This document shows, one piece after another, positions 26,801-29,800 of a DNA stretch of 45,560 bases. This stretch comes from Escherichia phage ev243. The stretch is from the sequence record NC_049955.1; one strand, written 5' to 3'. Made by a program: the position numbers. Position 1 is the first letter of the stretch; each line of letters starts with the position of its first letter.

Positions 26801-29800
26801 GAGATGGCGCGGTAAGTTGTTGACTTAAAATGTCGTTCTAGGAACTTCTAAGTCGTGGGCCGCAGGTTCGAATCCTGCAGGGCGCGCCATTACAATTCAA
26901 TCAGTTACGCCTTCTTTATATCCTCCATAATTCCAGAGTGGGACATATTTGGGACATTATCACCAAAAATGTCGTCTATTTTCCTCGCATGCTCTGTCAA
27001 ATGATTAGGCGCAAGGTGAGCATACCTACGAACCATTTCTATGGACTCCCATCCGCCCATTTCCTGAAGCACTGATAATGGGACGCCTGACTGAATCAGC
27101 CAGCTTGCCCAGGTGTGTCTGAGGTCATGGAAACGGAAATCTTCAATTCCTGCACGACGACAAGCTGATAGCCATGATGTCTTGCTGTCGATGCGCATCT
27201 TCCTGACCGCAGGCGTTGATGTTCCATCTGCTCGCTTAGCCGCCTTGGTATGTACAAACACCCATTTGTGATGCTTGCCTATTTGATCACGCAACACTTT
27301 ACAGGCGGTATCGTTCAGCGCCACACCAATGGCGCGGTTTGATTTGCTCTCTTCTGGATTCACCCAGGCAACTCGTCGCTGCATGTCGATTTGTTGCCAT
27401 TCCAGATTTATGATGTTCGACTTTCTCAGACCAGTTGCCAGCGCAAACTTGACGACAGATTTCAGTGGTTCGGGGCACTCATCAATAAGGCGTTTTGCTT
27501 CCTCCTTTTCCAGCCATCTGACTCGCTTGTTTCTGACCGCTGGTATCTTGATGACAGGCGCTTTTTCCAGCCACTTCCAGTCGCGTTCTGCAGCACGGAG
27601 AATGGCCTTTATCATGGCAAGATGCTTTGCCTTTGTCTGAGTTGATACTGGCTTTGGTTCATAAACAGGCGGTTCTTTACCTTTCCTGATGGCGGCCTGA
27701 ACTTTCTGTTTCCATATTTCTTTCGTCTTTCTGTTATGCATTCTGCTTACAGCAGAGTAAATCTTTGCCTCCGAGATATCTTTAAGCCTTATACCCTCAA
27801 AATGTTCAAGCCAGAACTCAATCCGGCTTTTATCTGAATCGAGAGATTTTTTATCAGCTTTTTCCTCAAGCCATCTTAGGCAGGCCTCTTCAAAAGTGAC
27901 ATCAGGTAAATCCCCTAGCTTTTCTACTCGCCAGAGTTCTGCTTTTCGCTTGTCGTGCAACTCCTGAGCTTGCCGCTTGTCCTTTGTGCCAAGAGATTCC
28001 TTAATTCGTTTCCCGCCCGGGAGCGAATACGAGGCATACCATATTTCATTTCTGCGGAAGAGTGACATTTTCTTTCCTCTGTTATGCCATCACCCGCGCT
28101 CACCTGGACAGTATGCAGCGGAGACTGAAGCGCCGCAATGCAGGCTTGCCGTGTTGTGAGGTAAGGAGATTTTGGCTTGGTTGGATCTTTACGTGTTGCC
28201 TGTAGGCGGCCTGTTCGTATCCAGTTGGTGGCGGTTGGTCTGGATATCTTAAGAAACTGACAGGCCTCATCGAGTGTGAGGCTGTATGATTCCATGGTTA
28301 CCTCTGCTTTTTGAACGCATGTCACGTAACTTCTTAATGTGTTCTGCCGTTTCGATCTCTTCTGCTATCCGATCTGCATCAGCTTTATTCACAGGTTCAA
28401 AGTCATGATTAAAGCGGAACATGCTGGCGATACATGTTCTGCCTTTTCGGATGTAGTGAACTTTGTTGTGGGTAGAACGCAGGATTTTGCAGGGAGTGCC
28501 GTGGTGGTCGACGTACCAGGTGTTAGGAAAAATGATTCTGAACATTTTTACACCTCAGTTGGACGATGTTGAAATTTGCTGCTTTGAGGCCATCACAGTC
28601 CCCATTGTTTGTTCTTAAGTTCGATCTCCTCCTGGCAACTTGCACAAGTCCGACAACCCTGAACAGCCAGGCGTCTTCGCTCATCTATCGGATCGCCACA
28701 CTCACAACAATGAGTTGCGGATACAGTCTGGTAGTTCAGACGACGCATTTTTATTGCTGTATTGCGCTGTAATTCTTCGATTTCTGATGCCGAATCAATG
28801 ATGTCTGCCATCTTCCATTAATCCCTGAATTGTTGGTTAATACGCTTGAGGATGAATGCGAACAATAAAAAAGGAGCCTGTAGCTCCCTGATGATTTTGC
28901 TTTTCATGTTCACCGTTCCTTAAAGACGCCGTTTAACATGCCGATCGCCAGGCTTAAATGAGTCGGTGTGAATCCCATCAGCGTTACCGTTTCGCGGTGC
29001 TTCTTCAGTACGCTACGGCAAATGTCATCGACGTTTTTATCCGGAAACTGCTGTCTGGCTTTTTTGATTTCAGAATTAGCCTGACGGGCAATGCTGCGAA
29101 GGGCGTTTTCCTGCTGAGGTGTCATTGAACAAGTCCCATGTCGGCAAGCATAAGCACACAGAATATGAAGCCCGCTGCCAGAAAAATGCATTCCGTGGTT
29201 GTCATACCTGGTCTCTCTCATCTGCTTCTGCTTTCGCCACCATCATTTCCAGCTTTTGTGAAAGGGATGCGGCTAACGTATGAAATTCTTCGTCTGTTTC
29301 TACTGGTATTGGCACAAACCTGACTCCAATTTGAGCGAGGCTATGTGCCATCTCGATACTCGTTCTTAACTCAACGGGAGATGCTTTGTGCATACAGCTC
29401 CCCGTTTATTATTTATCTCCTCAGCCAGCCGCTGTGCTTTCAGGGGATTTCGGATAACAGAAAGGCCGGGAAATACCCAGCCTCGCTTCGTAACGGAGTA
29501 GACGAAAGTGATCGTGCCTACGCGGATATTATCGTGAGGATGTTTCATCGCCATTGCTCCCCAAATACAAAACCAATTTCAGCCAGTGCCTCGTCCATTT
29601 TTTCGATGAACTCCGGCACCATCTCGTCAAAACTCGCTATATACTTTTCATTCCGCTCAATCACGACATAATGCAGGCCTTCACGCTTCATACGCGGGTC
29701 ATAGTTGGCAAAGTACCAGGCATCTTTTCGCGTCACCCACATGCTGTACTGCACCTGGGCCATGTAAGCCGATTTTATTGCCTCGAAACCACCGAGCCGG

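Follow-up and report, generated by a model that had tools for sequence, protein, structure and literature searches.

We find that the minus-strand open reading frame at 27924..28295 of Escherichia phage ev243 very probably encodes an intact, full-length excisionase of the P22 Xis family, set in the attP-int-xis module that is standard for that family. The sequence analysed here (NC_049955.1; 45,560 nt, referred to below as the window) had been the subject of a preliminary description, which pointed out a helix-turn-helix (HTH) excisionase-like frame beginning MESYSL; that frame was confirmed, with a product of 123 aa. The product matched Pfam HTH_17 (Pfam scan; E = 1.2 × 10−8) and, through its residues 1 to 116, positions 2 to 117 of the 117 in the phrog_2907 profile, "excisionase" (E = 5.9 × 10−46). 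It aligned over its full length and without internal gaps with the Xis proteins of phage L (78% identity) and SfI (81% identity), and the corresponding DNA aligned with the annotated xis genes of both phages without frameshifts or internal stops. Full-length homology (PHROG 2907; HTH_17) thus assigned the protein to the P22-type Xis family, and gene placement gave the same assignment: xis is co-oriented with, directly upstream of, and overlapping a P22/IntD-type tyrosine integrase gene that adjoins attP. A P22-type int/xis module with a long overlap is already known and is annotated in phages L and SfI.

Two possible starts were considered. In the ORF listing, the minus-strand open frame spans 27924..28325 and starts at GTG, and the ATG of MESYSL, at 28295, lies 10 codons inside it. 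The GTG start at 28325, which would give a protein of 133 aa, was rejected because homologues begin at the MES ATG and a mosaic breakpoint falls exactly there. The ATG is preceded by GAGGT, with a spacer of 4 nt (AACC) between the two.

Structure prediction was consistent with this assignment in the N-terminal half of the protein. The AF2 model of Xis contained a confident winged helix at residues ∼5 to 57 (pLDDT about 90), followed by a linker of low confidence (residues 64 to 87), a helix at residues 89 to 111 (pLDDT 57 to 67), and a disordered tail; pLDDT across the C-terminal half was 41 to 67. The best Foldseek matches of the N-terminal domain were Pukovnik Xis, BldC, RacA, and P2 Cox (probability 0.99 to 1.00), with E-values that, given the small size of the domain, were weak (about 0.02). 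The modeled N terminus therefore appears to have the winged-helix (MerR/Xis-like) fold of a P22-type Xis. Against this domain, the Xis of mycobacteriophage Pukovnik (PDB 4j2n) gave a TM score of 0.74 normalized to the target and P2 Cox (4lhf) a TM score of 0.53; the two proteins are 17 to 24% identical to the window Xis, and neither carries a C-terminal extension encoded in int.

Among known systems, one of the closest likenesses is to P22/phage L, whose Xis (116 aa) shares with that of the window the HTH_17 winged-helix N terminus, the attP-int-xis order, the frame relation between the genes, and the attP arm. The window Xis differs in having 7 extra C-terminal residues and an overlap of 145 rather than 124 nt with int; in addition, its attP core is a fragment of argU, whereas phage L and SfI have a different tRNA-like core, and, unlike in P22/L, the module sits in a phage with lambda immunity and lambda morphogenesis genes. 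SfI resembles the window further upstream, where xis is preceded by a DUF4222 gene with a 29-nt overlap and then by a DksA-like zinc-finger gene, but its Xis belongs to the 116-aa/124-nt class. For lambda Xis, too, the expected role is that of directionality factor to a heterobivalent tyrosine integrase; its gene likewise precedes int in the pL operon, and its fold falls in the same broad winged-helix class. However, it has no detectable sequence similarity to the window Xis. Consistent with this, the window Xis does not belong to the lambda-type Xis family (HTH_17 was the only family returned by the Pfam scan), and a PDB sequence search with it gave insignificant matches only, with no lambda Xis chain. 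SfII and SfIV, too, have related Xis proteins in their annotation.

Conservation of the xis/int overlap

The integrase gene (26905..28068, minus strand) encodes a tyrosine integrase of the IntD/P22 Int type. Its 387-aa product covered the whole Pfam Phage_integrase profile (E = 5.5 × 10−47), was 74% identical to the Int proteins of phage L and SfI, and had the length of most intact relatives; PGAP gives the gene at the same position in the E. coli E2865 prophage the name intD. The preliminary description had noted that xis stays open 145 nt into int, far more than in lambda, and both points held on recomputation (28068 − 27924 + 1 = 145; lambda xis and int share 23 nt, and lambda Xis has 72 aa). 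The dual-coding segment (27924..28068, minus strand) is read in two frames, for Int residues 1 to 48 and for Xis residues 77 to 123, together with a single nucleotide of Xis codon 76.

An unusually long Xis had been one of the readings proposed for this arrangement. The gene is indeed that of a real excisionase longer than lambda's, but its length is not unusual, since P22-type Xis proteins have 115 to 123 aa and overlaps of 124 or 145 nt. The overlap is 124 nt in phage L and likewise in SfI. Among the 113 relatives returned by a protein search, two size classes of full-length protein dominated, one of 115/116 aa and one of 122/123 aa; the sources were Escherichia, Salmonella, Citrobacter, Cronobacter, Serratia, Pantoea, Erwinia, Xenorhabdus, Yersinia, and others. 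The Xis family adjoined an integrase in 160 phage records. We surveyed the overlap in 50 related loci, from many Enterobacterales, in a collection with one genome per species. The xis stop fell precisely 124 or 145 nt into int in 48 of these, at a constant frame offset; the other two were visibly decayed copies. The stop positions were fixed in those 48 loci although identity falls to 43% for Xis and to 58% for Int.

The difference between the two classes could be traced to a single Int codon. The stop site of the L and SfI xis genes (AGC TGA and AGC TAA) reads AGC GAA in the window, and 7 more codons (21 nt, encoding EKQNSGE) lead to a TAG. Int codon 41 is Arg in the window (CGA) and across the 145-nt clade (CGN/AGR) and Leu in the other relatives (CTR/TTR). 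In the 124-nt class, the last two bases of the Leu codon and the A that follows make up the xis-frame TGA or TAA; the 145-nt form thus exists because Arg at codon 41 removes this stop. The TAG of the longer form consists of bases of Int codon 48 (GTA in the window; GTA or ATA in the clade) and the following G. It was kept in all 12 of the analyzed members of the 145-nt clade, whereas the third base of codon 48 varied freely in the 124-nt class. On a neighbor-joining tree of Int residues 51 to 387, which lie outside the overlap, the 145-nt state was a single change. Because the 123-aa Xis is shared across a clade with a conserved stop, it is the normal form of its lineage and not a one-off loss of a stop codon. 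A 124-nt overlap characterizes the lineage of P22, L, and SfI; the argU/DLP12-type lineage, this phage included, has 145 nt.

A stop-free run of this length is not rare in one sequence: in the same relative frame of the long genes of the window, about 14% of 48-codon stretches lacked stops, and the estimates for the chance of a stop-free stretch ran from 0.14 to 0.19. The overlap is therefore meaningful through its conservation in the family and through reduced synonymous variation. Since third positions of Int are second positions of Xis, synonymous variation in int is expected to be low where the Xis frame is under selection. We compared third positions among codon pairs encoding the same amino acid in 32 intact int genes. 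The frequency of differences was 0.364 in codons 1 to 41 versus 0.546 in codons 49 to 387, and the lowest value in any other 41-codon window of int was 0.454. This reduction is what would be expected under selection on the Xis frame; effects at the 5' end of a gene, such as constraint on translation initiation, can also cause such a reduction. Codons 42 to 48, in contrast, gave 0.526, without reduction; the 7 extra Xis residues may thus be nearly neutral, though the position of their stop is conserved in the clade.

We regard it as improbable that only the N-terminal ∼75 residues of Xis, with the winged helix, matter and that the part within int is tolerated read-through into a stretch where Int happens to lack stops in the Xis frame. 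The low pLDDT of the Xis model past residue 63 fits that reading, as does the chance frequency of stop-free stretches given above, and residues of the Xis tail are partly set by conserved Int residues (the terminal GE and stop derive from Int W46-R47-V48). However, neutral read-through sits poorly with the occurrence of just two stop positions in 48 of the 50 loci despite strong divergence of both proteins, with synonymous variation in the overlap below that of every other 41-codon window of int, and with the helix predicted at Xis residues 89 to 111. P22 Xis, moreover, is said to have been purified and studied as a protein of 116 aa. We therefore favor a C-terminal part that contributes to function: by analogy with the tail of lambda Xis, the part encoded inside int probably gives cooperative contacts with Int or with other Xis molecules. 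A stronger version of this idea, which we consider possible but doubtful, is that the overlap is a selected device rather than an accident; going by lambda, the C-terminal helix of Xis would be expected to touch the arm-binding N terminus of Int (residues 1 to 41/48), and if it does, the co-encoding of the two would force interacting surfaces to coevolve, while ribosomes crossing the int ribosome-binding site and start might set the Xis:Int ratio. The co-encoding of these two segments is conserved across the Enterobacterales.

Phage context, attP, and the DLP12 xisD remnant

The window is a cos-to-cos genome of a lambda-immunity phage in excised form. Its ends are cos-like, starting with GGGCGGCGACC and finishing with ...CGACAGGTTACG, and it is collinear with Escherichia phage 2G7b (95 to 98% identity over 83 to 93% of each half). 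From their translations, we take the ORFs of the immunity region to be lambda cI, rexA, rexB, cro, cII, and N.

The attP core (approximately 26842..26891, plus strand) duplicates the 3' part of the tRNA-Arg gene argU. The copy is an incomplete tRNA, and a tRNA search of the window (ARAGORN) returned none. In alignments with E. coli genomes, the ompT-side flank ends at query position 542 and the argU-intD-side flank starts at query position 493/496, leaving ∼47 to 50 bp in common. An argU repeat of 47 bp has been described for DLP12 (PMC6379469), in agreement with this length, and the argU 3' end in the attL of E2865 has the same sequence as the core. In most E. coli chromosomes, the two flanks lie at separate sites and have only the core in common; since they are joined here, the window contains attP, a junction that is formed on excision and is otherwise present only in virions. 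A pair of tandem prophages, which could also have placed ompT, a partial argU, and int side by side, was rejected given the lambda-like cos start, the collinearity with 2G7b, and the separation of the flanks in most E. coli chromosomes. The attP arm adjoining the core (26718..26841, plus strand) is homologous to the P22/L and SfI attP arm, with which it aligns although the L/SfI tRNA core differs, and includes repeats of the GGGAC(A) type. GGGACA/AGTGGGAC occurs in repeats D1 and D5 (26717-26736, 26782-26789, and 26937-26956), and repeats of the GGGACA type flank the core on both sides. Judged by their sequence, these repeats are candidate arm-type sites for Int, and the arm presumably also holds sites for Xis and IHF.

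By homology with related systems, the module could operate as follows. After induction, N-antiterminated transcription from pL would cross the early left operon and express xis and int together; a terminator-like hairpin lies in the path of this transcription, at 28889-28871, and pL read-through would pass it. The winged helix of Xis would recognize repeats, arranged head to tail, in the attP/attR arm by the core and bend the DNA. Purified P22 Xis binds att DNA cooperatively and bends it (Mattis et al. 2008, in the account given where PMC7498355 cites it). Together with Int and host IHF, Xis would then assemble an excisive intasome on attR and attL, driving excision by attL × attR recombination. 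A lambda pI-like cII box (TTGCN6TTGC) was not found within or near xis, and neither xis nor the DUF4222 gene contained such a site with at most 1 mismatch; this counts against the present reading to the extent that Int made without Xis in lysogenization has no cII-type box to account for it.

Because xis runs so far into int, a decayed or out-of-frame Xis like the xisD pseudogene of DLP12 had also been suggested. DLP12 of E. coli K-12 resembles the window in its adjoining intD and its argU site, and K-12 xisD is 99.7% identical to the window over the segment that remains (27850-28163). However, the K-12 homology begins at xis codon Y45: the first 44 codons, with the HTH, are deleted, and what remains of xis starts a few bases beyond the 3' terminus of a remnant of exo. 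This deletion of about 1.4 kb removed the HTH-coding 5' part of xis together with the DUF4222, TraR, and neighboring genes, as far as the end of exo. It is this 5' deletion that makes xisD a pseudogene, not its running into int. On the sequence comparison, K-12 xisD is a 5'-deleted remnant of the gene that is intact in the window. Alignment showed that the window and E2865 both keep the whole 5' region, the gene is likewise undeleted in many prophages of E. coli, and a query of xis plus DUF4222 was at least 80% covered in 983 of 5,426 complete genomes.

The suggestion of decay is thus refuted. That xis is a frameshifted or stop-loss pseudogene and the phage unable to excise by itself is, in our judgment, hardly credible, even though several observations could be read that way: in E. 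coli E2865, PGAP marks a gene without any nucleotide difference from xis as an "incomplete" pseudogene of 66 nt, xis is unannotated in several phage records, and the P22 stop codon position is lost. Against them stand the frameshift-free, full-length alignment to annotated L and SfI Xis, a 123-aa length and stop common to a clade spanning many genera, the absence of the K-12 deletion, and the excised configuration of the window, with an identical gene in sequenced phage genome records. The PGAP call and the other annotations look like artifacts of the long overlap. In the Turner record, a 56-aa ORF in the wrong frame is annotated at the xis locus; the 2G7b, PhiR68_2, and PhiR34_1 records have no gene there; and many P22-like records carry "integrase" alone under the Xis match. 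Missed and miscalled xis genes of this kind can make the region look suspicious, and prophages at argU could be wrongly scored as excisionase-less, or "grounded," through missed annotation of xis. The value of the present assignment lies mainly in annotation and is small for biology, given that the long overlap is already annotated in reference phages (L and SfI).

We return, then, to an intact excisionase gene in an apparently complete module. To judge from its parts, the integration module looks complete: int and xis are both full length, xis has a Shine-Dalgarno sequence, and the attP arm is P22/SfI-like. The window xis shows no nucleotide differences from the 2G7b, Turner, and PhiR68_2 records and one from PhiR34_1. 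One study (bioRxiv 10.1101/2025.11.03.685801) worked with PhiR68.2 as a temperate, plaque-forming phage related to lambda, and epsilon34, a functional P22-like phage, relies on an argU attP, with the DLP12 integrase as the nearest match to its own (PMC2629481). As far as can be judged from sequence, this module is likely to be competent for excision. The earlier caution that such competence is not guaranteed is weakened, though only weakened, by the excised attP, the cos-to-cos form, and the identical xis in phage genome records.

The DUF4222 gene upstream of xis

The 92-aa ORF that the preliminary description placed upstream of xis is present (28267..28545, minus strand), but it does not lack a recognizable motif, as had been stated: its product matched Pfam DUF4222 (PF13973; E = 1.9 × 10−19; 69.4 bits versus a cutoff of 27) over positions 1 to 53 of 53, as well as the function-unknown family phrog_285 (E = 3.2 × 10−38). 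The gene is an accessory gene of the early left operon whose last ∼10 codons overlap the start of xis by 29 nt. Upstream of it lie a TraR/DksA zinc-finger gene (28811..28593) and then lambda-type exo and bet. Homologues of the 92-aa protein share a common core of ∼77 residues, and their C-terminal tails vary in length. The AF2 model (pLDDT 83) consisted of an SH3-like barrel and a long helix. Fold searches with it gave generic SH3-like matches only (PWWP, KOW, TnsB, and HIV-integrase SH3-like domains; uncharacterized phage proteins) and pointed to no function; in the literature, DUF4222 was mentioned in gene lists only.

A functional partnership with Xis or Int, with the DUF4222 protein serving, for example, as a second directionality or regulatory factor, seems very unlikely to us. 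The 29-nt overlap with xis recurs in SfI and in two genome loci, and an SH3-like fold would be compatible with nucleic acid binding. Nevertheless, DUF4222 was directly upstream in only a few of the 50 xis/int loci; xis often has yfdT upstream instead in E. coli genomes, and DUF4222 also occurs without xis, adjoining ASCH or TraR genes. The overlapping tail is variable and lies outside the conserved domain. Mosaic breakpoints in E. coli genomes fall at the xis ATG (window position 28295) and near 28316-28319; the extension of the DUF4222 tail over xis is therefore a by-product of module joining. The DUF4222 gene is thus a mobile accessory gene of the early left operon and no obligatory partner of xis and int.

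Database proteins of 206 to 207 aa join DUF4222 to Xis. A programmed frameshift was considered as their origin and rejected because they form single-member clusters from one or two contigs each. The fusions carry differing 1-nt indels within the overlap, one of them in an A5 run, and most probably reflect errors in sequencing or sporadic mutations.

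Breakpoints, fusion proteins, and annotation around xis

Many E. coli prophages share mosaic recombination breakpoints on the upstream side of the P22-type excisionase gene xis, at window positions 28295 and 28316-28319. The former coincides exactly with the xis start codon; the latter lies in DUF4222 (the overlapping 92-aa ORF), just within its 3' end. Among the alternative genes found upstream of xis is yfdT. "DUF4222-Xis fusion" proteins of 206-207 aa also occur in public databases (entries P0001, P0005, and P0006). What sets them apart from the window sequence are 1-nt insertions or deletions within the 29-nt overlap of the two genes (28267-28295); one such indel falls in the A5 run at TCAAAAAGC. 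Since each fusion protein forms a single-member cluster, present on only one or two contigs, an origin by sequencing error or sporadic mutation is more likely than programmed frameshifting.

The identical xis is wrongly annotated in several records. In E. coli strain E2865, PGAP placed a 66-nt pseudogene fragment there instead (locus L004, 2881-2946), and the record of phage Turner (L056) gives a 56-aa hypothetical protein in a frame other than that of xis (1901-2071), equal to the window ORF at 28100-28270. In the related phage 2G7b and the PhiR phages, the xis position is without any annotated gene. Farther upstream, a 103-aa ORF (28910-29221, minus strand) matches phrog_303 and phrog_26061, both PHROGs of unknown function; its start is uncertain, because 2G7b and E2865 annotate its counterpart only as a shorter, 71-aa protein.

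Putative transcription signals in the early left operon

Within the early left operon, the minus strand carries a strong terminator-like hairpin with a T-run after it (AGGGAGCTACAGGCTCCTT TTTTATTGTT; 28871-28889). TraR/DksA, DUF4222, xis, and int all lie downstream of this hairpin, and antitermination would be needed for transcription from pL to reach xis and int. Within window positions 27900-28900, no cII-type TTGCN6TTGC box (at most one mismatch) was found inside xis or the DUF4222 gene. Yet lambda cII itself is apparently present in this phage, and the sole perfect TTGCN6TTGC site in the window (36519-36532) coincides with the 5' end of that ORF.

Genome type and the ompT-attP junction

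Inspection of both ends (1-60 and 45500-45560) revealed that the window starts with the lambda-like cohesive-end sequence GGGCGGCGACC. ORFs read by eye at 33200-36900 are presumably lambda N, rexB, rexA, cI, cro, and cII. Given this start and these ORFs, the window appears to be an entire phage genome of hybrid make-up, in which lambda immunity is combined with an integration module of the DLP12/P22 type.

A full-length cargo gene for the omptin protease, ompT (25469-26422, minus strand), adjoins attP (26842-26891), an adjacency set here in a cos-to-cos lambda-like phage genome. Phage 2G7b likewise has ompT beside attP, and once integrated at argU this order yields the K-12 layout, argU-intD ... 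ompT. The ompT-attP-int junction was unbroken in one complete E. coli chromosome, that of strain E28 (NZ_CM143889.1, 3738874-3739484; 100% coverage, 99.7% identity), which suggests either tandem prophages or inclusion of the excised form in the assembly.
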